Shown: piece after piece, positions 2,274 to 25,733 of the stretch
Layout: every line of letters starts with the position of its first letter
Numbering within the stretch: position 1 is the stretch's first letter
Translations under genes and position numbers: made by a program
The notes under the pieces: generated by a model
What the model saw: only the letters and a program-made list of their open reading frames with translations
What the model was told of the DNA's origin: nothing
The model's database searches: none
Assembly (NCBI GenBank): GCA_964437185.1
Contig: CAYTFU010000001.1
Span: 101,022-165,021 of the forward strand
Length of the DNA: 64,000 nt
Direction: 5' to 3'
Source: an uncultured Candidatus Saccharibacteria bacterium
GTDB lineage: Bacteria > Patescibacteriota > Minisyncoccia > Phycocordibacterales > UBA2100

Positions 2274-3322
2274 AATTCAAAGAATTTTTCAATAGAAGTA
2301 CCGACCGAGATATCGCGGAGCGTATGAAACGCGCGACGAAAATTTCAATGGGCGACGCTGTGCGTGATCGCATGCGTGCGCACCTTTCGGAATACACCAA
2401 AATGCGCCCGATCCGCGAAACGCGCGGCGCTCAGGCGCGAATTAATGGCTCATTCACTGCATTTTTTGCTCACATCCGCCCGATGCCCATCGTGGCCGCT
2501 CTTCTCATCATCTCAATCGGCAGCAGCACGGTGAGCGCCGAATCTTCTCTTCCTGGCGATCTCCTCTATCCAATAAAGGTGCACATAAATGAAGGGATAC
2601 GCTCTGCGATCACGCGGACTCCGGAAGCGCGCATTGAATGGGCCGTCGCGCGCGCGGAGCGCCGTCTCGAAGAGGCCGCTATTCTCGAACTCGTCGGCAA
2701 CCTCAGTGAAGCCACGCGCGCGGAGCTCGAAACCAACCTCGATGCGTACGAACAGTACGCACAGGAATCAGGTCAGGGGTACGCAGGGACAGGTGCACTT
2801 CCAGAGTTGGCGGAGAGCGTCGGAGCGATACGCATCGCGCGCCGCAACATCCTCGGCACGCTTGCCGAGGGGCGCAGAGCTGCCCATGTCACTCAGGCTG
2901 CGCAAGCAGAATCAGTAGGCGACGCGTCTACAGCAAACTTTACGATGGAAGCGCCCGAGGCGAGCATCATGAGCGCAAAGGCAGCTGCACCGATCCCCGA
3001 AGCTGCTCCCGCCCTCATGGCCGAAGCTATGGCGACCGATATCGACGATGAGGAGGGGCCCGAAGTCCGAGCGCGAGGGAATCGCACAGCCGCCAAAGTG
3101 CGTATTGGAGCAGCCGAGCGCTTCCTCGAAAAACAGAAAAATCTTGATGAGGGAACGCGGCAAGAAGCGCGCGAACTCCTCCAAGTCGCCCGCGAAAAGT
3201 TTGAGGAAGCCGACGAGAAGTCATCGCATGGCAAGCGCGAAGATGCAACGCGCGAATTTGAGCAGGCGCTCGAAAGCGCGATGCGAGTCGGTGCTGCCCT
3301 TTCTGAAGTGCGCGGAGAGTAG
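2270..3322 (+). CDS. putative anti-sigma factor or membrane protein cotranscribed with the ECF sigma
   Basis: ATGA overlap with the sigma stop. Single TM helix (PIVAALLIISIGSSTV), then a long coiled-coil/acidic extracytoplasmic region. The location fits a typical sigma/anti-sigma pair. Confidence 0.45.
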   Translation: MKFKEFFNRSTDRDIAERMKRATKISMGDAVRDRMRAHLSEYTKMRPIRETRGAQARINGSFTAFFAHIRPMPIVAALLIISIGSSTVSAESSLPGDLLYPIKVHINEGIRSAITRTPEARIEWAVARAERRLEEAAILELVGNLSEATRAELETNLDAYEQYAQESGQGYAGTGALPELAESVGAIRIARRNILGTLAEGRRAAHVTQAAQAESVGDASTANFTMEAPEASIMSAKAAAPIPEAAPALMAEAMATDIDDEEGPEVRARGNRTAAKVRIGAAERFLEKQKNLDEGTRQEARELLQVAREKFEEADEKSSHGKREDATREFEQALESAMRVGAALSEVRGE

Positions 3323-5937: not shown

Positions 5938-6213
5938 ATGGCAAATAAAATGGATTTGGTTGAGAAGGTCGCCGCCACAATCGGTTGCACAAAAGCCGAC
6001 GGCGAGCGAGCGGTCGAGGCGATTATCGCCACGATCACAGAGTGCCTCAAGCGAGGCGACGAGGTGTCGGTAGCGGGCTTGGGAATCTTCCAGGCAAAGA
6101 CACGTGCAGGTCGCACGGGTCGAAATCCGCGAACTGGTGCGACGATTCAGATCAAGGCAATGAAGGTGCCGAAGTTCCGCGCCTCCAAGACCTTGAAAGA
6201 CGCGATCAAATAG
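5938..6213 (+). CDS. hup: HU-family DNA-binding protein
   Basis: 91 aa. MNKMDLVEKVA...VAGLGIFQAKTRAGRTGRNPRTGATIQIKAMKVPKFRASKTLKDA. Confidence 0.9.
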   Translation: MANKMDLVEKVAATIGCTKADGERAVEAIIATITECLKRGDEVSVAGLGIFQAKTRAGRTGRNPRTGATIQIKAMKVPKFRASKTLKDAIK

Positions 6214-9792: not shown

Positions 9793-10184
9793 CTGGCTAT
9801 TGTACACCGAATCGACCATCCCCACCTGTCAGGAGTTCGTACAAGACACCGATTCAGACCATGGTTCACGTGTAACCACCCTTTTATGTTACTTAAGTAA
9901 CAAAATTGGAGCTGTTACACGTGCCACCGGGAAACAACGGCGATTTGGGCCGTTCGTTACGGACAGTCCTTTATCCACATATCCACCGACTTGTCCACAG
10001 TTTCGGACATCGTTCTATGGCCTATTTGCTGTAATTTTCTGGACTTCGTTATTTTGTCCGTAAGATTGGTGCGTTTCATGTCCTTGTACATTAGATTTTA
10101 TCGAGGTTATAAGCCATAAAATCGTCTTTTACAACACATCTTTTGCTTGACTCCAAGGCCTTACATAGAATACGTTTTCCCTAT

Positions 10185-11724: not shown

Positions 11725-11749
11725 ATGTGCTCCCGCCAGGATTCGAACC
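11725..11749. repeat. 25-bp direct repeat of the tRNA-Arg 3' half (T-arm plus acceptor); att-like
   Basis: tgtgctcccgccaggattcgaacct is identical at 11725-11749 and 11876-11900, the latter inside the tRNA-Arg gene. Confidence 0.85.
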
Positions 11750-11877
11750 TTACAGGTTCAGTACACCTTTGCGGTTTTCTCACAGCTCCGCCGCTCGCAA
11801 ACATCGCAAAGGTCTTCGAATCACTGGTCGCACGCAAAGCAGTTTGCGTGCTCGGGAGCACACATGCTTCGCTTGTG

Positions 11878-11949
11878 TGCTCCCGCCAGGATTCGAACCT
11901 GGAACGACAGTTCCGAAGACTGTTGTGATATCCGTTTCACCACGGGAGC
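11878..11949 (-). tRNA. tRNA-Arg (anticodon TCG)
   Basis: Acceptor GCTCCCG/CGGGAGC. D-arm GTGA-AACGGATA-TCAC. Anticodon stem ACAGT/ACTGT, loop CTTCGGA. T-arm CCAGG-TTCGAAT-CCTGG. 72 nt, no CCA. Confidence 0.8.
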
Positions 11950-14723: not shown

Positions 14724-15659
14724 CTACTTCCTTCGTTTCCCGTGGAACGCCTGATGTACCGACCGAAGGTGCTTGTCGGTGACGTGCGTGTAGACTTGCG
14801 TTGTCGCAATGTTGGCGTGACCCAAGAGCGCCTGCACACTTCGAAGATCCGCGCCATTTTCCAGAAGGTCGGTCGCGAAGCTGTGACGAATTACATGGGG
14901 AGTCACCTTGCGGGTGATGCCAGCCTTGATTGCATACTGTTTCACAAGCCGCTCGACTGATCGAGGTGTAATCCGGTGCAGATCTTGATTGCCACCTTTC
15001 TTGCCCTGCGAAGCTTTGGCGAAGGAGGGGCCGTACGACACAAAGAGCGCGTCGCTCATGTCGCCGCGTTTCTTAATATACGCCGCGACGGCAGCCTTCG
15101 CAGAAGGGGAGAGGAAGACGACACGCACCTTCTCACCCTTACCCCGGACAGAAAACTCATCTCGCGATAGGTCTAAGTCGTGATTCAGACCGCACAGCTC
15201 AGAGACACGGAGGCCCGTGGAGAAGAAAAGCTCAAGAATTGCGCGATCACGCAGGGCTGGGAGCTCCTCACCCTGCGGCGCCTTCAGTATCCTGTTTAAC
15301 TCATCGGCAGTAATGAGGTCGAGATCTCGTCCTCCTACTTTGGCGAGCTCTATGCGCTCAGGGTTCAAAGACTCTATGTCTCGCTTGCGCAAGAATTTGA
15401 GAAACGCGCGCAATGCGATGAGGTGGTAATTCTGCGTATTTTTCTTCATTGTGCCCGACACACCGCCCGATCTATTGAGCGTAATGCGAAACTCCCGGAC
15501 CTTCTGCTCGGTAATCTGAGTAGGGGAGCTCACCTTTGCAAAGTTCAAAAATCGCATGAGGTACCGATCGTAATTCTCAACCGTCTTCACCCCGCGCCCT
15601 TTCTCAATCTCAATGTATTCCAAAAATTGCGTCTTGAGCGACTTCAAATCTGCAGCCAT
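14724..15659 (-). CDS. tyrosine site-specific recombinase, XerC/XerD family
   Basis: N-terminal SAM-like domain. C-terminal catalytic R...HVIRHSFAT...LLGH...TQVYTHV. Confidence 0.85.
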   Translation of the reverse strand: MAADLKSLKTQFLEYIEIEKGRGVKTVENYDRYLMRFLNFAKVSSPTQITEQKVREFRITLNRSGGVSGTMKKNTQNYHLIALRAFLKFLRKRDIESLNPERIELAKVGGRDLDLITADELNRILKAPQGEELPALRDRAILELFFSTGLRVSELCGLNHDLDLSRDEFSVRGKGEKVRVVFLSPSAKAAVAAYIKKRGDMSDALFVSYGPSFAKASQGKKGGNQDLHRITPRSVERLVKQYAIKAGITRKVTPHVIRHSFATDLLENGADLRSVQALLGHANIATTQVYTHVTDKHLRSVHQAFHGKRRK

Positions 15660-19283: not shown

Positions 19284-20282
19284 TCACGCCGCGGCACCCT
19301 CAGGCGCGCGCATTTTGCGGCGTGAGGAAAAATAGGCAAACGTAATAAATACGAGACCGATAAGCCCCGTGATCACCTCCGGCACGTGGATGAAAATCCC
19401 CACGAGCATCGCGAGTGCGAGCCCAAGAATGGCCCAATGTGCACCGTGTTCGAGGTAGGGGAGCGCGTCGAGCGTCTTTGCGCGAACGAGATAGACGGTA
19501 AAGGCTCGCACGAAAAGCGCGCCGATCCCCAAGCCGGCGATAATGACCGGCAGCGCGGAAGTAACCGCGAAGGCGCCGACAACGCCATCGAGCGAGAACG
19601 CTGAGTCGAGCACGTTGAGATAGATAAAGAGGGCCGCCCCAGCACTCGCCGCGTGTTCGCCAGCCTGCACCTCAAACGATTGGGCAATACCCTCGATCAC
19701 GATGAAGAGCACGACACCGATAAGGCCGGCGATGAGGAGAGTTGCCGCTTCGTGCGGCACGGCAAATGCGCACCCAAGGAGAATGACGAGCACGAGAGCG
19801 ATTTCGATTGCCTCGATGCCGCCCCACCGTGAGAGGTAGCGCTCCACAATATCGATCCAGTGCACTGTCTTTTTTTCATTAAAGAAATATTTGAGCGATA
19901 CGAGCAGCAAGAACGCGCTACCAAACGCGCCGATTGCAACGTGCGCATCTGCAAGCCGGTGGCCATACTCGGCAGCGTCAAAGAAGGCAAGCTGAGTTAC
20001 GAAGATAGGGGAAAGGCCGGCCGCGGCCGCGACGATAAAGATGGGAAGAACGAAACGCGTGCCAAACACCGCGACTGGGATGCCCCACACGAGGAAGCGC
20101 TTCTGCCAGAGCGGGTCCATGCGCTGGAGCACCTTCGCATTTACAACGGCGTTGTCGAAAGAGAGGGTGGTTTCCAAAATCGCCAGTAGCACTACCAGAA
20201 GCAGCGCCGTAAGCCCTCCCCAGGAGAACGCCCCCGCAAACGCGACGATGGATACGATGGCCGGAAAAATGAATACGCGCAT
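19284..20282 (-). CDS. TerC/DUF475-family integral membrane protein
   Basis: LSFDNAVVNA and FSLDGVVGAFAVT motifs. Multi-TM. Confidence 0.8.
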   Translation of the reverse strand: MRVFIFPAIVSIVAFAGAFSWGGLTALLLVVLLAILETTLSFDNAVVNAKVLQRMDPLWQKRFLVWGIPVAVFGTRFVLPIFIVAAAAGLSPIFVTQLAFFDAAEYGHRLADAHVAIGAFGSAFLLLVSLKYFFNEKKTVHWIDIVERYLSRWGGIEAIEIALVLVILLGCAFAVPHEAATLLIAGLIGVVLFIVIEGIAQSFEVQAGEHAASAGAALFIYLNVLDSAFSLDGVVGAFAVTSALPVIIAGLGIGALFVRAFTVYLVRAKTLDALPYLEHGAHWAILGLALAMLVGIFIHVPEVITGLIGLVFITFAYFSSRRKMRAPEGAAA

Positions 20283-20305
20283 AACAATGCGGGTATCCTA
20301 CCACA
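20228..20305. repeat. 78-bp direct repeat, copy 1: the native start and upstream region of the TerC-family gene
   Basis: About 92 % identical to 21536-21613. Includes the minus-strand ATG of the TerC gene at 20280-20282 and its first 18 codons. Confidence 0.9.
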
Positions 20306-20416
20306 ATTTGGTTTATGAGTGCCCAAATGAGATACGCCTAGATTGGCGGGCACCGAGGGACCGGGACCGAGCGGAGACAGACTCCATGCCTGCCATTGAA
20401 AGAGGCGAAGAAAATC

Positions 20417-21469
20417 CTATTCAACTAGGGTGATACTTCTAACAAACTGATTCGCAGCTTGTTTTTGAGAATCAGTCATGTAGGACATATCAATCATCAC
20501 ATCTGACTCGCTGTCACCGTTAGAGTCAATAAATAACACTGCGAACGGCCTGCCATTTAATTTCTCCCAGTTTCCATACCCGTCTCCCTCATTCCAGTCG
20601 TATGTGTCGTATATTCTTAAAACCCTAGCCTGGCCAGCAATTTCCACAGCCGAGGAAGAAATCTCAGCAATGGGAACTCCCGCATTCCATTCCCCAAAAT
20701 AAGCATCTGCGGATATATCGATGGTACCGTCACCATAGAAGATTTGTATATGCTCTGGTTCAAATGTTGATCGTGGCGGGTGGGGCCAGTCAAGTATCTT
20801 TACAATACTCACAGCATTCTCAGGTGGAATAAAACTTATACCTGCTTTTTCAAAAATAAACTTTTGATTTTTTGAAAAACGCTGAATGCTCTCTTTGTTT
20901 GCATCCTCAAAAGCAAAAGCGTCACTTATACCTAAAATCTCAGATGTGTTATTCTTTTCCCTTACTTTGGCAACAAAGAAGTATTTACTCTTTGTATCTA
21001 ACTCACATTCAAGTGCGGGCACGACGTACTTAACTTCCTCGAAAGCCACAACATTTGAAGCGACCTTACACTCAGAATCCTCGCTATTTAAATAAAGGTC
21101 AAAGACGCTGATGTTCGTATCCCTGCTTAGTGACCATCTAACAGGGAATGCAAGGTTCCGACTGAGGCGAGTATCTCCGTTCGGGTCGATAAAAACCAGA
21201 GGAGATACTGCTTTCTTTTCATTTTCCGGTGTTGGTGTATCAAGTGCTGCAAAGCCTTCCGTTCTTGCGTCAGATTCAACTTTAACTACTGAAATTCTCT
21301 CCACCCTAACAAAATTCTCAGGGGCAAATGAATACCAAACCCACCCACCAATAAGCGACAAAGTCACAAAAAGCGCCATCGCTAAATACTTTGGAGGCGG
21401 AGTTGCGGTGCCTCCAACACTTGCTGGTCTCTCGAGTGAGACTGACTCTCGAGCTTGCTCAGGCTCCAT
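20417..21469 (-). CDS. hypothetical secreted/membrane-anchored protein in a low-GC insert
   Basis: ATG at 21469 (MEPEQARES...). The track ORF starts at TTG 21490. Signal-anchor ALFVTLSLIGGWVWYSF. About 42 % GC against about 58 % in the flanks. No family recognised. Confidence 0.55.
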   Translation of the reverse strand: MEPEQARESVSLERPASVGGTATPPPKYLAMALFVTLSLIGGWVWYSFAPENFVRVERISVVKVESDARTEGFAALDTPTPENEKKAVSPLVFIDPNGDTRLSRNLAFPVRWSLSRDTNISVFDLYLNSEDSECKVASNVVAFEEVKYVVPALECELDTKSKYFFVAKVREKNNTSEILGISDAFAFEDANKESIQRFSKNQKFIFEKAGISFIPPENAVSIVKILDWPHPPRSTFEPEHIQIFYGDGTIDISADAYFGEWNAGVPIAEISSSAVEIAGQARVLRIYDTYDWNEGDGYGNWEKLNGRPFAVLFIDSNGDSESDVMIDMSYMTDSQKQAANQFVRSITLVE

Positions 21470-21535
21470 CGAATTTATGATACCACGCAAAGTTGAAGTT
21501 CGAAGGCGCTGTAGTCAGACCCCGCGGACCAAAGC

Positions 21536-21613
21536 ACGCCCCCGCAAACGCGACGATGGATACAATGGTCGGAAAAATAAATACCGGCATAACAATGCGG
21601 GTATCCTACCACA
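21536..21613. repeat. 78-bp direct repeat, copy 2, upstream of the inserted low-GC gene
   Basis: Carries a duplicated TerC start (MPVFIFPTIVSIVAFAGA...) that opens a roughly 43-codon leader ORF. Its TGA lies 8 nt past the ATG of the insert gene. Confidence 0.9.
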
Positions 21614-21682
21614 CCAAGGTGATCCCTTGACGCGCCACGAGCCTTTGTTATAATCTCGTTATAACATAACCGATCTACCTGT

Positions 21683-21925
21683 ATGTCACAAAAAGTGATC
21701 CGAATAGGTTCTTCAGCCGGGCTTACGATTTCTCCAGATATATTGGAGGCTCTCGGCATCCAGATAGGGGACGCTGTTGAGGTCTCGGCACACAGATCTG
21801 CACGAACACTCACGGTGAGACCCAAAGAAGAAACTGGAGAACAGGTGAATCCCGATGTAGTCGTGTGGACGAATGCATTCATCGACAAAAACCGAAAGCT
21901 TCTGATGCGACTTGCTGACAAGTAG
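21683..21925 (+). CDS. AbrB/MazE/SpoVT-fold antitoxin (Phd-like partner of Doc)
   Basis: 80 aa. Swapped-hairpin signature IRIGSSAGLTISPDILEALGIQIGDAVEV. Immediately upstream of the doc gene. Confidence 0.7.
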   Translation: MSQKVIRIGSSAGLTISPDILEALGIQIGDAVEVSAHRSARTLTVRPKEETGEQVNPDVVVWTNAFIDKNRKLLMRLADK

Positions 21926-21926
21926 C

Positions 21927-22325
21927 ATGAATTATCTTTCGGCAGCTGACATACTTGCTATCCACGACCGCGTTATCGAGGAGACGGGCGGCATGTTGGG
22001 TGTGCGCGAAGAAAACCTATTGCAATCTATCGCGCAACGCCCCAAGACCTCATTAGGGGGCATTGAACAATTTCCAGATATTTTCACGAAAGCAGCAGTG
22101 TACCTCGAATCCATCGCGACCTATCATGTCTTTCTCGACGGCAATAAACGCACCGCACTTTCCGCGGCGGCCGTGTTTCTGCGTCTAAATGAATATGAGA
22201 TGACACTTCCAATCACAGCGACGGAAGAATTCATGGTGGCAGCAGCGCAGAGGAAGTATTCACTCGAGCAAATCGCCGCCTGGCTCAAAACCCACTCAAA
22301 GCGAATTGCGAAAGGTAAATCCTGA
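21927..22325 (+). CDS. doc: death-on-curing (Doc/Fic-family) toxin
   Basis: Fic motif HVFLDGNKRTALSAA. ATG 1 nt after the antitoxin stop. The track ORF starts at TTG 21912. Confidence 0.85.
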   Translation: MNYLSAADILAIHDRVIEETGGMLGVREENLLQSIAQRPKTSLGGIEQFPDIFTKAAVYLESIATYHVFLDGNKRTALSAAAVFLRLNEYEMTLPITATEEFMVAAAQRKYSLEQIAAWLKTHSKRIAKGKS

Positions 22326-22353
22326 CGCAAGAACATTGCGACACACTTTTCCC

Positions 22354-22376
22354 ATTCCCGTGGGGTCAGACCCCAT
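22354..22376. repeat. palindromic 23-mer attcccgTGGGGTCaGACCCCAt, copy 1, with an extra GACCCCATGTC half-site repeat downstream
   Basis: Perfect 7-bp inverted arms around a single nt. The second copy is at 23371-23393. cagaccccatgtc is directly repeated at 22367-22379 and 22388-22400. Confidence 0.85.
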
Positions 22377-22678
22377 GTCCACATGTCCAGACCCCATGTC
22401 TCTCAACCAACGAATAAAACAGGACGCCATCTCTCTTGTTGAGCCGTCATTGCACAGTCCGCTGAAGGTAGAGGGGTTCTTTCGACACAAAATATTCCCC
22501 GACCTAGTCTTCCATACAAAGGCACACCCCTAACTTCACGCCATCGGCTAAAGTTAGTGGTGCATGTTTCTTGCGACCTCATCTCCCGTGGGATTTTACC
22601 CCGTGATCGTGCCATATTGACACACGATTCAATTGGGTGTTTATTCCTCGGAGAGCAACTTTTGAGGAGGACTTTGAC

Positions 22679-23218
22679 ATGCCTACGAACTGGACAATCG
22701 CTGACACTGCGAAGCTGAATGGATTTGATGCGGCCGCGTTCTGGGAGTGGCTGCGGACGGGATTGCGTGATTGGGACATCGACGAGTTACGGTGGCAAGC
22801 TTTTGCGCCCGTTGTGTACCGATTCGATCCATTCGACGATCCCGAAGATAGCATTGCAAGAATGTTTGAGGCACTTTCAGAAGACCGGCAAAGTGTCTTT
22901 TGTGAGGCACTTGCGTTCGGATTTTCTGCAGCAAACATCACCCCGGAAGCATTCGACTTTTTGCAGAACATTCTGGTTCTGCTGAAAAGGTCGGAGCCCG
23001 TGGAGGCAATGGTCGCCCGTCTGTGCGAATCCAACTACCTCGACGCAACTTCACATGAGGTTGCCGATCAATTGTTTGCAAGAGTATTCGCCGTGGAGGC
23101 GCTCTACACGCATCCGCGGTGGGAAGCGCTCTATGCTCGCCTTAAGGCGTCATCATACTTCAGGGAGACATACCGACCACGAATCGAAGAACGGATCGCA
23201 GCGGCTCAGCAGCGATGA
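22679..23218 (+). CDS. hypothetical protein (orphan)
   Basis: Strong SD GAGGAGG 8 nt upstream of the ATG at 22679. Acidic, Trp-rich, no known motif. Confidence 0.5.
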   Translation: MPTNWTIADTAKLNGFDAAAFWEWLRTGLRDWDIDELRWQAFAPVVYRFDPFDDPEDSIARMFEALSEDRQSVFCEALAFGFSAANITPEAFDFLQNILVLLKRSEPVEAMVARLCESNYLDATSHEVADQLFARVFAVEALYTHPRWEALYARLKASSYFRETYRPRIEERIAAAQQR

Positions 23219-23273
23219 TTCTGGCTACCCGCGGCATGAAATGTGCCGCGGGACATCTACTTCATTTCGATGG

Positions 23274-23340
23274 AAAAGATAGCGCAGCAATGCAATCGTG
23301 GTATTGTGCCCACATTAAAGGCGGCCCGAGGATAGGTAGT
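23274..23340. repeat. degenerate tandem repeat A upstream of pnp, containing an extended -10-like CGTGGTATTGTGC
   Basis: Shares aagatagcg, aatcgtggtat(t/a)gtgcc, catta and ggatagg(t/c)agt with repeat B at 23432-23507. Confidence 0.6.
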
Positions 23341-23370
23341 TCTCAAACTCGGTTTGAGACCTAAAATCCG

Positions 23371-23393
23371 ATTCCCGTGGGGTCTGACCCCAT
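23371..23393. repeat. palindromic 23-mer attcccgTGGGGTCtGACCCCAt, copy 2
   Basis: 22/23 identical to copy 1. Preceded by the hairpin tctcaaac-tcg-gtttgaga at 23339-23360. Confidence 0.85.
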
Positions 23394-23431
23394 TGACCCG
23401 ATCCGGAAGGGTAGCCCTTACCTTCGGACGC

Positions 23432-23507
23432 GAGAAAGATAGCGTGTGCTAGAAATCGTGGTATAGTGCCTGCATTAGTAAATAGTTGTGGCGGGCGGAT
23501 AGGCAGT
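23432..23507. promoter_or_regulatory. repeat B: likely pnp promoter/leader with extended -10 CGTGGTATAGTGC
   Basis: TGgTATAGT matches the extended -10 consensus TGnTATAAT. It lies about 90 bp upstream of the pnp start. Confidence 0.5.
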
Positions 23508-23555
23508 GTTGACCATATGGCTCACTACTGAAATCCGAACGTCACCCAAAGAAAA

Positions 23556-25733
23556 ATGGAAAAGAAAGTATATTCTCTCGAAATCGGGGGAAAGACGATG
23601 TCCGCTGAGTTCAACGATTGGGCGGATCAGACAAACGGATCGGTGTTGGTGCGCTACGGCAACAGCGCGGTACTCGCGACTGCCGTGATGGGCAAGGAAT
23701 CCGACAAAGATTATTTCCCACTCTCAGTGGAATACGAGGAGAAGTTTTATGCAGCGGGCGCAATTCTCGGCAGCCGCTTTATGCGCAGGGAAGGCCGGCC
23801 TTCGGATGAAGCCATCCTCTCAGGACGTATCGTGGATAGAACCATTCGCCCACTCTTTCCGAAAGGAATGAAGCGCGAAGTGCAAGTCATCATCACCGTC
23901 CTTTCTATTGAAGAGTACGACACCGACATTTTGGCGGTCAACGCGGCATCACTCGCGCTCGCCACATCCGACATTCCATGGAATGGTCCGGTTTCATCGG
24001 TGCGCATCGGAGTCGAAGAAGATAACGACGCCCTCATCGTCAACCCTACCTACAAGCAGCGTGAAGAAGAATTGCCACCGAAGGCGGTTCTCGACCTCAC
24101 AGCCTGTGGCAAAGACGGACTCATCAACATGATCGAGGTCGGCGCACGAGAGGTATCCGAAGCGATGCTCGAAAAGTCGCTCGCGCGTGCAAGTGAGGAA
24201 ATCGAGAAGATTCAGAAATGGCAAAAGATGATCGTCGCTGAGCGAGGGAAAACGAAGTGGGATTTCAAATCGCCTGAAGCGACAGCTGAAATGAAAGCGG
24301 CTTTTGCCGAAATTGTTGAGCCAAAGCTGAAGGCATCGGGAGGCAAATTGCCCAAACAGGAACTCGGCCCGATGAAATCCGAGTGGATGACATTCGCTAC
24401 CGAGAAACTCCCGGAGACCCCAAAGGGTCAGCTTGACGCATATTACGAAGAGCGTCTCGACGCATTCGTACACGACCTCGCGATCAATGAAGACAAACGC
24501 GTTGATGGCCGCGCGCTCGATCAAATCCGCCCACTCTTTGCGCAGGCTGGCGGCGTTTCTCCCGTTATTCACGGCACCGGCATCTTCTATCGCGGCGAAA
24601 CGCACGTACTCGCGGCGCTCACGCTCGGCGGCCCAGGCGACGCGCAACTCATCGACACCATCGAATTCCAGGACACGAAAAAGACCTTCATGCTCCACTA
24701 CAACTTCCCACCGTTCTCAGTAGGGGAGACAGGGCGCGTCGGAGGATTCAACCGACGTATGACAGGTCACGGTGCGCTCGCCGAAAAAGCATTGCGCGTC
24801 ATGATGCCGTCTAAGGACGTATTTCCGTACACGGTGCGTATCGTTTCCGAGTGTCTCGCATCCAACGGCTCTACCTCTATGGCCACGGTATGCGCAGGCA
24901 CGATTGCGCTCATGGACGCGGGAGTGCCGATTCAGCGCCCCGTCGCCGGAATCGCAATGGGCATGATGAGCGATTCGAAAGCGGGGAAGTACAAGGTGCT
25001 CACCGACATTCAGGGACCCGAAGATCACCACGGCGACATGGACTTTAAGGTCGCGGGCACGTCAGAGGGCGTGACCGCCGTACAAATGGACGTGAAAGTA
25101 GAAGGCGTACCGCTCAAAGTACTCACCGAGGCATTCGCGCAAGCAAAGAAAGCCCGCATGCAAATTCTCGACGTCATCACAAAAGAGATCGCATCACCAC
25201 GCGCGAGCATTTCTGAGCGCGCTCCGAAAATCCTCACGCTCGTCGTGAAGAAAGATCAAATCGGACTCGTGATTGGTCCCGGAGGAAAAATGATCAACGG
25301 CATCCGTGAGCGCACAGGCGTCGATGACATTACGATTGAGGAAGACGGCACCGTCTTCATCACCGGAAAGAATGGCTCGGCCGAAGAAGCATTTAAAGAG
25401 ATCAGTGATCTTACTCGCGAATATATGGTGGGCGATCGATTCGAAGGTGAAGTGGTGCGGATTATGGATTTCGGTGCGTTCGTGAAGATAGGTCCCAACA
25501 ACGACGGCCTCGTCCACGTCTCAGAAGTAGCGCCGTTCCGCATTGCGAAAATTACCGATGCCGTTCAGCTCGGCGACGTCGTACCCGTCGTCCTCAAAGA
25601 AATCGACGAGAAAGGACGGTATAATCTGTCCATCAAAGCCGCTGATCCCGAATGGGCCGCTCGCAAGGGTCTGAAGCCGGATCAAGGTGGCGGAGATTCA
25701 CATGGCGGAAGTCGACCACGGAGACATTTCTAA
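23556..25733 (+). CDS. pnp: polynucleotide phosphorylase
   Basis: 725 aa. Two RNase PH domains, KH (IGPGGKMINGIRERTG) and S1 (GDRFEGEVVRIMDFGAFV). Confidence 0.95.
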   Translation: MEKKVYSLEIGGKTMSAEFNDWADQTNGSVLVRYGNSAVLATAVMGKESDKDYFPLSVEYEEKFYAAGAILGSRFMRREGRPSDEAILSGRIVDRTIRPLFPKGMKREVQVIITVLSIEEYDTDILAVNAASLALATSDIPWNGPVSSVRIGVEEDNDALIVNPTYKQREEELPPKAVLDLTACGKDGLINMIEVGAREVSEAMLEKSLARASEEIEKIQKWQKMIVAERGKTKWDFKSPEATAEMKAAFAEIVEPKLKASGGKLPKQELGPMKSEWMTFATEKLPETPKGQLDAYYEERLDAFVHDLAINEDKRVDGRALDQIRPLFAQAGGVSPVIHGTGIFYRGETHVLAALTLGGPGDAQLIDTIEFQDTKKTFMLHYNFPPFSVGETGRVGGFNRRMTGHGALAEKALRVMMPSKDVFPYTVRIVSECLASNGSTSMATVCAGTIALMDAGVPIQRPVAGIAMGMMSDSKAGKYKVLTDIQGPEDHHGDMDFKVAGTSEGVTAVQMDVKVEGVPLKVLTEAFAQAKKARMQILDVITKEIASPRASISERAPKILTLVVKKDQIGLVIGPGGKMINGIRERTGVDDITIEEDGTVFITGKNGSAEEAFKEISDLTREYMVGDRFEGEVVRIMDFGAFVKIGPNNDGLVHVSEVAPFRIAKITDAVQLGDVVPVVLKEIDEKGRYNLSIKAADPEWAARKGLKPDQGGGDSHGGSRPRRHF

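Follow-up and report, generated by a model that had tools for sequence, protein, structure and literature searches.

A stretch of 64,000 nucleotides from an uncultured Patescibacteria bacterium (contig CAYTFU010000001.1, positions 101,022 to 165,021; hereafter the window, which is the scope of all window-level counts and scans) carries a 1227-nt insertion in the 5' region of a gene for a DUF475 (TerC-clan) membrane protein, and the segment of that gene from -23 to +58 is present on both sides of the foreign DNA. A sequence-only reading of this locus had held that the inserted gene appears to be expressed from the duplicated copy of its neighbour's promoter and leader. The evidence described here points mostly to a real but fairly ordinary scar of horizontal gene acquisition at a hot spot, and not to a designed leader-peptide control. 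The parts of the locus are as follows.

19284-20282, minus strand: intact DUF475 (TerC-clan) membrane protein gene, 332 amino acids, identified with Pfam; the target of the insertion
20225-20305, minus strand: direct repeat copy 1, in which an extended -10 element (TGGTAGGAT, 20303-20295) is followed after 12 nt by the ATG (20282) and the first 19 codons; joined to the DUF475 gene body
20306-21532, minus strand: inserted DNA, 1227 nt, made up of a 111-nt 3' flank, the 350-amino-acid gene and a 63-nt 5' flank
20417-21469, minus strand: insert gene, 350 amino acids, with an N-terminal membrane anchor, a beta-sandwich and a PsbP/Mog1-like C-terminal domain in a low-confidence model
21477-21485, minus strand: extended -10 element TGGTATCAT belonging to the insert gene itself, of leaderless type, with 7 nt between it and the ATG
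21459-21590, minus strand: 43-codon open reading frame (ORF), 18 DUF475 codons followed by 25 insert codons, with a TGA that overlaps the insert-gene start region
21533-21613, minus strand: direct repeat copy 2, a relic of the DUF475 promoter and first 19 codons, at the ancestral position next to Phd
21627-22325, plus strand: Phd/Doc toxin-antitoxin operon (Phd 21683-21925, Doc 21927-22325; promoter TTGACG-16-TATAAT)
23454-25733, plus strand: native PNPase promoter and leader (23454-23555) and PNPase gene (23556-25733), the other conserved flank of the hot spot

The direct repeats and the ancestral locus

A repeat finder reports two direct repeats of 81 nt at 20225-20305 and 21533-21613, identical at 75/81 positions, and a stricter alignment trims them to a 78-nt core at 20228-20305 and 21536-21613; the direct repeats that the sequence-only reading had placed around the insert are thereby confirmed. 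The two repeat halves have exactly two occurrences each in the window, where shuffles predict 0. This rules out a dispersed repetitive element as their origin, which had been named as a possible refutation.

Copy 1 consists of the 23 nt upstream of the DUF475 gene and the first 58 nt of the gene, and on the minus strand the repeat reads TGTGGTAGGATACCCGCATTGTT-ATG followed by 19 codons. The first 27 nt, from the promoter to ATG+1, are the same in both copies, and all six mismatches sit in the coding part: CGC in copy 1 against CCG in copy 2 (R2P), TTC against TTT (synonymous), GCC against ACC (A8T), ATC against ATT (synonymous) and, at the repeat border, TTC against TGC (F to C). Copy 2 was said to preserve the ATG and first 18 codons, and it indeed retains them (MPVFIFPTIVSIVAFAGA), with two amino-acid changes relative to copy 1; the promoter element is kept as well. 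Codon 2 of the relic encodes Pro, whereas most of the close relatives read have Arg at this position and none has Pro, which suggests that copy 2 is not maintained as a DUF475 start. The Pro codon fits a fragment that no longer serves as the start of DUF475 and is silent on any use of the peptide itself.

The insert region is covered by eight different metagenome contigs at 99.9-100% identity (MEGAHIT and Logan assemblies, different runs), five of which span both repeat copies with the same six mismatches, the other three holding copy 2 only. Because separate assemblies agree, the repeat-insert arrangement is real and fixed in one population. A chimera of two co-existing strains joined at the repeat might be envisaged, given that this is a metagenome-derived genome with a sister lineage in the same samples; however, the five spanning contigs come from different runs and two assemblers and are identical in sequence, and the longest identical stretch of the repeat is 28 nt, shorter than the assembly k-mers (the contig names say k141). 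Logan assemblies use k=31. A chimera is therefore vanishingly unlikely, and an assembly artefact was rejected on the agreement of these five contigs.

In relatives that share the local synteny (RarA, FKBP, S15, NYN, DUF475, PNPase), PNPase and DUF475 are divergent neighbours. The two genes are uninterrupted, with a gap of 126-231 bp, in eight loci (L006, L007, L009, L087, L088, L089, L092 and L099), and in four others (L008, L090, L091 and L133) the PNPase-DUF475 site is occupied by unrelated inserts 1.35-4.3 kb long. The interval measures 3273 bp in the window. By this comparison it is a recurrent insertion hot spot in Candidatus Kaiserbacteria. The 350-amino-acid gene lies on this side of DUF475, between it and Phd/Doc-PNPase, and not in the NYN-TerC interval to which the sequence-only reading had looked for the interrupted site.

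The sister lineage L168, recovered from the same sample series and with a DUF475 protein 83% identical to that of the window, has the order PNPase, Doc (132 amino acids), Phd (80 amino acids), 93 nt, DUF475, and contains neither the 350-amino-acid gene nor orf179, a second inserted gene described below. Window positions 22341-21571, which run from Doc and Phd across the intergenic region into the beginning of copy 2, are collinear with L168 5249-6020 at 76.9% identity, and positions 20305-19307 (copy 1 and DUF475) are collinear with L168 5978-6976 in an alignment that begins exactly at the repeat border. Since L168 is collinear on both sides and the break falls at the repeat, copy 2 holds the ancestral position next to Phd; copy 1, which the sequence-only reading took for the copy in native position, adjoins the gene body. 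The event was thus a 1227-nt insertion at approximately +58 to +61 of DUF475 together with a duplication of -23 to +58, in an immediate ancestor that held only Phd/Doc in the hot spot, with the Phd start ~93 nt upstream of DUF475. The insert itself is absent from L168, L171, L174, L006, L007, L009 and other relatives, so the interrupted locus does have uninterrupted counterparts, as predicted, in L168 and eight further relatives. A search for an insert-free allele within the population, made with the exact Phd, HicB and DUF475 proteins, found the same layout in all contigs.

Promoters, the 43-codon frame and the inserted gene

The extended -10 pattern TGnTAnnnT lies exactly 6 nt before the ATG or GTG of long ORFs at 10 sites in the window, whereas three control motifs of equal composition reach 0-3 at any offset. 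S15, hicB and a Xer-like recombinase gene are among the examples, and sites with this spacing include 17994, 27666, 37942, 48335 and 63431 on the plus strand and 40990, 15674, 14720 and 1097 on the minus strand. A -10 element only 6 nt from the start codon would put the start of transcription at or next to that codon, implying that many genes of this genome are leaderless. In the window and in most aligned relatives DUF475 itself has an extended -10 element 6-12 nt before the ATG, and the 26 nt TGTGGTAGGATACCCGCATTGTTATG are the same in copy 1, copy 2 and L168. The repeat therefore comprises a core promoter, a near-leaderless start and 19 codons. No Shine-Dalgarno sequence is present within it, and the conserved element that had been read as one is the extended -10 TGTGGTAGGAT, 12 nt before the ATG. 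A known RNA element, such as a yybP-ykoY riboswitch or a PNPase leader, was also considered and rejected, as the Rfam search matched four tRNAs and nothing else.

The TGA of the 43-codon ORF (21461-21459) lies within ATGGAGCCTGA (21469-21459), 8 nt past the insert-gene ATG at 21469, so the stop/start overlap is as the sequence-only reading had it. Such an overlap resembles translationally coupled genes and leader ORFs, and hicB and hicA elsewhere in the window overlap in a similar way (ATGCGTAA); unlike coupled leader ORFs, however, the upstream frame here is a gene fragment made by the insertion, and the downstream gene has a leaderless-type promoter. It may be argued that copy 2 is the functional expression platform of the insert, with transcription starting there, the 43-codon leader being translated and ribosomes reinitiating at the ATGGAGCCTGA ATG. 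The 27 nt from -10 to ATG are unchanged in copy 2, the stop/start overlap is real, nothing resembling a terminator intervenes and, as no Shine-Dalgarno sequence precedes the cassette ATG, translation of the gene from a long transcript would need coupling. This explanation is nevertheless unlikely. The cassette gene has, like many genes of the window, its own arrangement of this type (TGGTATCAT-7-ATG), and a distant homologue is built likewise; the encoded peptide is a mutated fragment of a transmembrane helix (R2P, A8T); the 43-codon ORF is carried by one population only (contigs 99.9-100% identical); and the position of its stop is compatible with chance, since by our own estimate roughly 10% of cases would have a stop no more than ~10 nt away from the ATG. 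The frame is not called as a gene in any metagenome contig, and is most simply a relic 5' gene fragment.

The distant homologue, P0006, comes from another genome, where it lies on a contig of 38% GC and shows TGCTATGAT, 6 nt and then the ATG. From this layout and the insert gene's own TGGTATCAT element it follows that the duplicated promoter, leader and coupling are in all likelihood unnecessary for the cassette gene, which would be independent of them. Of the proposed translational coupling, then, the geometry stands and the dependence does not, and expression by way of the duplicated promoter and leader is unsupported. DUF475 would retain an intact promoter in copy 1 and the cassette gene could start from its own element. 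The copy 2 promoter probably still fires, giving a transcript with the 43-amino-acid fragment followed by the cassette gene; no terminator-like site or unusual structure was found between this promoter and the gene, and read-through with reinitiation at the overlapping ATG is possible. The 27-nt identity of the two copies is weak evidence that the copy 2 promoter may be kept up, as it has a chance of ~0.09 by our own calculation.

The insert ORF has 43.2% GC and a GC content at third codon positions (GC3) of 0.39, compared with a GC3 of 0.62-0.69 in the neighbouring genes, which confirms the insertion of compositionally foreign DNA. Its 350-amino-acid product has no Pfam or NCBIfam match, and a word-indexed protein search returned only the protein itself. 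An exhaustive HMMER search found 334 proteins at E <=0.001, so the description of the gene as an orphan does not hold strictly. The C-terminal domain is common to three of them, P0002, P0003 and P0118, of which P0002 is 37% identical over residues 91-348 (E=3e-34). Most of the 334 share just the N-terminal ~70 residues, a module of the form MEPEQ...SKYLAMALFVxLPFIGGWVGYxxAPEK fused to varied ectodomains. The conserved MEPEQ beginning supports the ATG at 21469 as the likely true start. A single-sequence AlphaFold prediction was useless (predicted local distance difference test score, pLDDT, 36). The structure prediction called for by the sequence-only reading yielded a membrane anchor, a beta-sandwich and a PsbP/Mog1-like domain in a model of low confidence.

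The insert gene family seems to use a leaderless-type promoter, as this genome does, and the one short contig carrying P0006 suggests that it may be at home in lower-GC relatives. We propose that the cassette gene encodes a membrane-anchored surface protein and came from such a relative. A viral origin was rejected, as neither a homologue of the protein nor the dyad motif described below has a match in IMG/VR. The ~70-amino-acid anchor module is itself widespread and unannotated (proteins P0006-P0150); it carries a TPR ectodomain in P0019, and none of eight other module-bearing proteins scanned gave a significant Pfam match.

Further scars and the dyad motif

The window contains other sites that bear on the history of the DUF475 insertion, of which the following are used here.

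1119-1759: hicBA site, bracketed by direct repeats
21514-21527, minus strand: dyad-type motif CCGCGGGGTCTGAC; repeat copy 2 ends 5 nt away from it
22342-23412, plus strand: second insertion relative to L168, which contains orf179 (22679-23218) and, at 23294-23371, a PNPase promoter/5' untranslated region (UTR) in a foreign, truncated copy
14724-15659, minus strand: gene for a Xer-like tyrosine recombinase (Pfam Phage_integrase, E=7e-42), its promoter of leaderless type

The hicBA site has the same architecture as the DUF475 locus, as had been noted earlier and is confirmed here. Direct repeats of 38 nt with one mismatch (1119-1156 and 1722-1759) bracket HicB (1218-1466) and HicA (1459-1662). 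The repeat begins at the extended -10 element TGGTAAGGT of a gene for an extracytoplasmic function (ECF)-type sigma factor (1740-2273) and includes the first 6-7 codons of that gene. Moreover, hicB carries its own TGATATATT 6 nt before the ATG, and a divergent gene has its promoter (TGATATGCT at 1097) right next to the upstream repeat copy. The context is the same in all contigs with the exact HicB.

At the opposite end of the hot spot, the PNPase promoter/5' UTR is present in two copies, a truncated distal one at 23294-23371 (copy B) and the native proximal one at 23454-23555, with GGATAGGNAG and CTRAAATCCGA as their conserved blocks. The identity of copy B is 80% with the leader of L009 but only 64% with the window's own. 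This shows that DNA arriving at the hot spot carries with it fragments of the conserved flanks of other Kaiserbacteria. Direct repeats of 27 nt, at 22350-22376 and 23367-23393, enclose the orf179 unit, and the dyad TGGGGTCWGACCCCA lies within them.

This dyad belongs to a pattern, CCGYGGGGTCWGAC (14 nt, core palindrome TGGGGTCWGACCCCA), with three copies in the window, all at cassette borders of the 3.2-kb island. Besides the copy next to repeat copy 2, one lies after Doc (within 22350-22376) and another (within 23367-23393) follows immediately on the truncated PNPase leader copy. The succession of a truncated promoter-plus-5' fragment, the motif, the cargo and an intact promoter with its gene is consequently found on either flank of the hot spot. 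By our own estimate the chance of finding such a 14-mer with <=1 mismatch in a given 60-nt junction is ~2e-5. Among the 165 loci compared, CCGYGGGGTCWGAC was found only in this population's contigs and was absent from 160 others; it was likewise not found in IMG/VR or at the hicBA event. The dyad could be a breakpoint resembling repetitive extragenic palindromic (REP) elements or a recombination site. A chromosomal dif or terminus site was rejected, as there is no GC-skew switch at the island. In L133 a different perfect palindrome, GCTAATTCGCGCGAATTAGC, stands at the insert border by the DUF475 promoter and again 4.2 kb away (5938-5964 and 10136-10162), which suggests that lineage-specific REP-like dyads may occur at variable regions of Kaiserbacteria.

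Origin of the arrangement

In the explanation favoured here, a 1.23-kb cassette with its own leaderless promoter entered DUF475 at ~+58 to +61 and the segment from -23 to +58 was duplicated during its entry. The downstream copy would then keep DUF475 intact and promoted, and the upstream copy would be left as a relic, with an intact core promoter and 18 codons running into the insert as far as a chance stop 8 nt past the cassette ATG. A Campbell-type single crossover, in which a circularised DNA fragment with ~80 nt of homology integrates, would yield exactly this topology of target segment, foreign DNA and target segment. It is the most likely mechanism, and we hold it with about even confidence. 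Indeed, the direct repeats that enclose the heterologous DNA correspond to one contiguous target segment (-23 to +58 of DUF475), and that target is unduplicated in L168 and the eight further relatives.

Insertion-duplication of circular non-replicating DNA through short homology is used in Streptococcus pneumoniae mutagenesis and in suicide-plasmid integration. There, as here, the foreign DNA ends up between direct repeats of the homologous segment, one copy of which stays on the intact gene body, and precise excision by recombination between the repeats is possible. The present case differs in being a putative natural event with only 81 nt of homology (38 nt at hicBA) and a presumed circular donor, and in that the duplicated segment is a core promoter with a gene start, so that the cargo side and the target both keep a promoter.

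The putative donor is a closely related strain that already had the cassette immediately upstream of its DUF475 -10 element. The DUF475 -10 and the Phd -35 are only 13 nt apart, and at the hicBA site the two divergent -10 elements are 21 nt apart. A donor insertion tolerated between divergent promoters must abut the -10, and for this reason the homology, and with it the repeat, would start at the -10 in both events. The donor type that the model needs is represented by relatives in which a plain insert lies immediately upstream of the DUF475 promoter. PNPase leader copy B, for its part, favours import from related strains over duplication in situ.

Several observations weigh against a Campbell-type origin and a relic status of copy 2. 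No DUF475-start repeats surround the inserts of L008, L090, L091 and L133, and a search for the donor of copy 2 found nothing above 84% protein identity. Decay following an in situ duplication would account for the six mismatches just as well, and for RecA-type recombination a homology of 81 nt (38 nt at hicBA) is short. The position of the dyad beside truncated fragments, here as well as on the PNPase side, hints at a breakpoint or recombination site more specific than random circularisation would give. Finally, selection on the copy 2 promoter could be the reason why the two copies do not differ in their first 27 nt.

Alternatively, the repeats could be a true target-site duplication, formed at a staggered double-strand break, with nicks ~81 nt apart in the promoter and in the early transcribed region, in which foreign DNA was captured and filled in, the repeats then diverging in place; an unknown transposase or integrase acting in trans, or end-joining repair, could be the agent. 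The DUF475 and hicBA repeats both begin 0-2 nt from an extended -10 and end in the early coding region, the relic copy has more derived states than copy 1 when polarised with L168, and the insert ends, TTTGGT...ACCAAA, form a 6-bp inverted match. Direct duplication of the target around an insert is also what transposons and insertion sequences (IS) produce. The lengths of 81 and 38 nt, however, differ from each other and far exceed known transposon target duplications, and the DUF475 copies are 93% and not 100% identical. No transposase is encoded in 20306-21532, where the sole long ORF has no Pfam or NCBIfam match and its homologues are membrane-anchored proteins, and the 6-bp match, the only terminal inverted repeat at the insert ends, can be chance; the insert accordingly does not qualify as a transposon. 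As the xenologous PNPase leader copy cannot stem from duplication in situ either, a staggered-break origin is quite improbable.

Site-specific recombination at CCGYGGGGTCWGAC would explain the island differently, a recombinase encoded elsewhere, such as the Xer-like enzyme at 14724-15659, moving cassettes of which the truncated promoters are a part. Each of the three motifs in 64 kb stands at a cassette border, two of them directly follow a truncated promoter-plus-5' fragment, and motif-containing 27-nt repeats bracket the orf179 unit. Yet the 350-amino-acid cassette has the motif at one end only and its repeats are the DUF475 segment, and the motif is missing from the hicBA event, from relatives and from IMG/VR. 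It is also a 7-1-7 palindrome without a central spacer, a feature that the core sites of tyrosine recombinases have. The lack of a GC-skew switch means that it is not a chromosomal dif by that criterion, and the Xer-like gene is conserved as a housekeeping gene in relatives without these cassettes. Recombination at the dyad is accordingly very improbable, and what probability the Campbell, staggered-break and site-specific routes leave falls to unresolved alternatives. A more far-reaching possibility is a recurrent, perhaps dedicated, route in Kaiserbacteria by which small self-promoted cassettes are added at the transcription-start regions of leaderless genes. The unit would begin with the dyad CCGYGGGGTCWGAC, and the target's core promoter and first codons would be duplicated. 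On this reading the 64 kb would hold three or four such scars, namely DUF475 (81 nt), the sigma factor gene with hicBA (38 nt), the PNPase leader copy and the orf179 unit (27 nt); if it is true, cargo and target both stay expressed and the cassette remains excisable. We regard it as quite improbable.

Returning to the single-crossover origin, other known systems share parts of its pattern. Vibrio cholerae's type VI secretion system (T6SS) effector-immunity arrays have been explained by homology-facilitated illegitimate recombination (HFIR) and sequential displacement at conserved anchors (PMC5361080); for HFIR, that paper cites de Vries & Wackernagel (2002) and Prudhomme et al. (2002). In those arrays too, foreign modules enter by a conserved anchor gene and push older residents aside, and fragments of the donor flank are left as scars, as PNPase leader copy B is here. 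In HFIR, however, the linear fragment takes the place of recipient DNA or causes its deletion, and no second copy of the anchor results from this alone; also, the anchor here is a promoter with a 5' gene end and not an upstream gene.

Integrative elements that enter a gene end and bring a substitute copy of it, with attL and attR at tRNA 3' ends, likewise place direct repeats of a gene end around an insert and leave the target intact, and genuine tRNA-targeted examples lie nearby (the tRNA-Arg duplicate at 11726-11750 in the window, and locus L022). The DUF475 insert differs from them in having no integrase, in carrying a single gene and in targeting the 5' end and promoter of a protein gene. 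No tyrosine or serine recombinase is encoded between the repeats, the nearest being the Xer-like gene at 14724-15659. Nor does the insert qualify as an integron cassette, there being no integrase between PNPase and DUF475 and no intI or attC. Unlike integron cassettes, the cassettes of the island are in mixed orientation, each with its own promoter, and the dyad lies 5' of the cargo genes. A further candidate analogue (PMC6350997) describes an IS-dependent system and was not used.

The locus is mildly unusual in that the duplicated unit is a complete leaderless promoter-start module, at least two such events fall within 64 kb and the dyad marks the borders. It offers a before-and-after picture of how an ultra-small genome of the Candidate Phyla Radiation gains accessory genes between two conserved divergent genes. 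In a genome run largely on extended -10 leaderless promoters, ~30 nt make a complete portable expression unit, and short promoter-plus-start duplications can therefore keep an interrupted target gene alive. Should the dyad and the promoter-start duplications prove to occur genome-wide, they would point to an undescribed route of cassette exchange in Patescibacteria.

Neighbouring genes and minor observations

The DUF475 gene gives a full-length match to the Pfam family DUF475 (E=4e-95, residues 42-325) and a weaker one to TerC (E=2.5e-15). The best matches of its product are proteins of Candidatus Kaiserbacteria and of other Patescibacteria metagenome-assembled genomes (MAGs); it is 80-84% identical to Kaiserbacteria DUF475 proteins, and the closest other DUF475 among 5.8 billion proteins is 84% identical, with nothing nearer on record. 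The five short contigs that carry the cassette (L001-L005) all end inside DUF475 at different points (window 19437-19990), and an exact look-up of the window's DUF475 protein returned no record, though it is listed as P0152. Strain variation or a drop in coverage is a possible cause of both.

The antitoxin Phd matches NCBIfam TIGR02609 (doc_partner) at E=1.3e-9 with 38.3 bits, below the curated cut-off of 55.9, and the toxin Doc matches TIGR01550 (DOC_P1, E=2.5e-20) and Pfam Fic (E=6.7e-18), both above their cut-offs. The adjacent genes for a small antitoxin and a Fic/Doc toxin identify the pair as a type II Phd/Doc system. It was the older resident of the hot spot, common to this lineage and its sister L168. 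Upstream of Phd, and overlapping its promoter, a conserved inverted repeat GTTATAAC...GTTATAAC is found at 21640-21665 in the window, at ~5915-5940 in L168 and at ~5785-5812 in L133; it is probably the Phd/Doc operator. The repeat is kept even with the distant Phd/Doc pair at the same site in L133, whose proteins are 33-44% identical.

The Xer-like recombinase gene is a housekeeping gene and not part of the island, because it occupies the same place in L168, L171 and L174, which lack these cassettes. The 3' end of a tRNA-Arg(tcg) gene (11877-11949, minus strand) has an exact 25-nt duplicate 150 nt away (11726-11750 and 11876-11900), which looks like an att-type scar of an integrative element.

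Repeats close to DUF475 in L022 and L113 were set aside as instances of the same mechanism, being tRNA 3' ends or tRNA paralogues. In L022, a Patescibacteria MAG, serial tRNA 3'-end fragments with a 32-nt exact repeat (1676-1707, ~1810-1840 and 3008-3039) flank ~1.3 kb of inserted genes just upstream of DUF475, an instance of classical tRNA-targeted integration.

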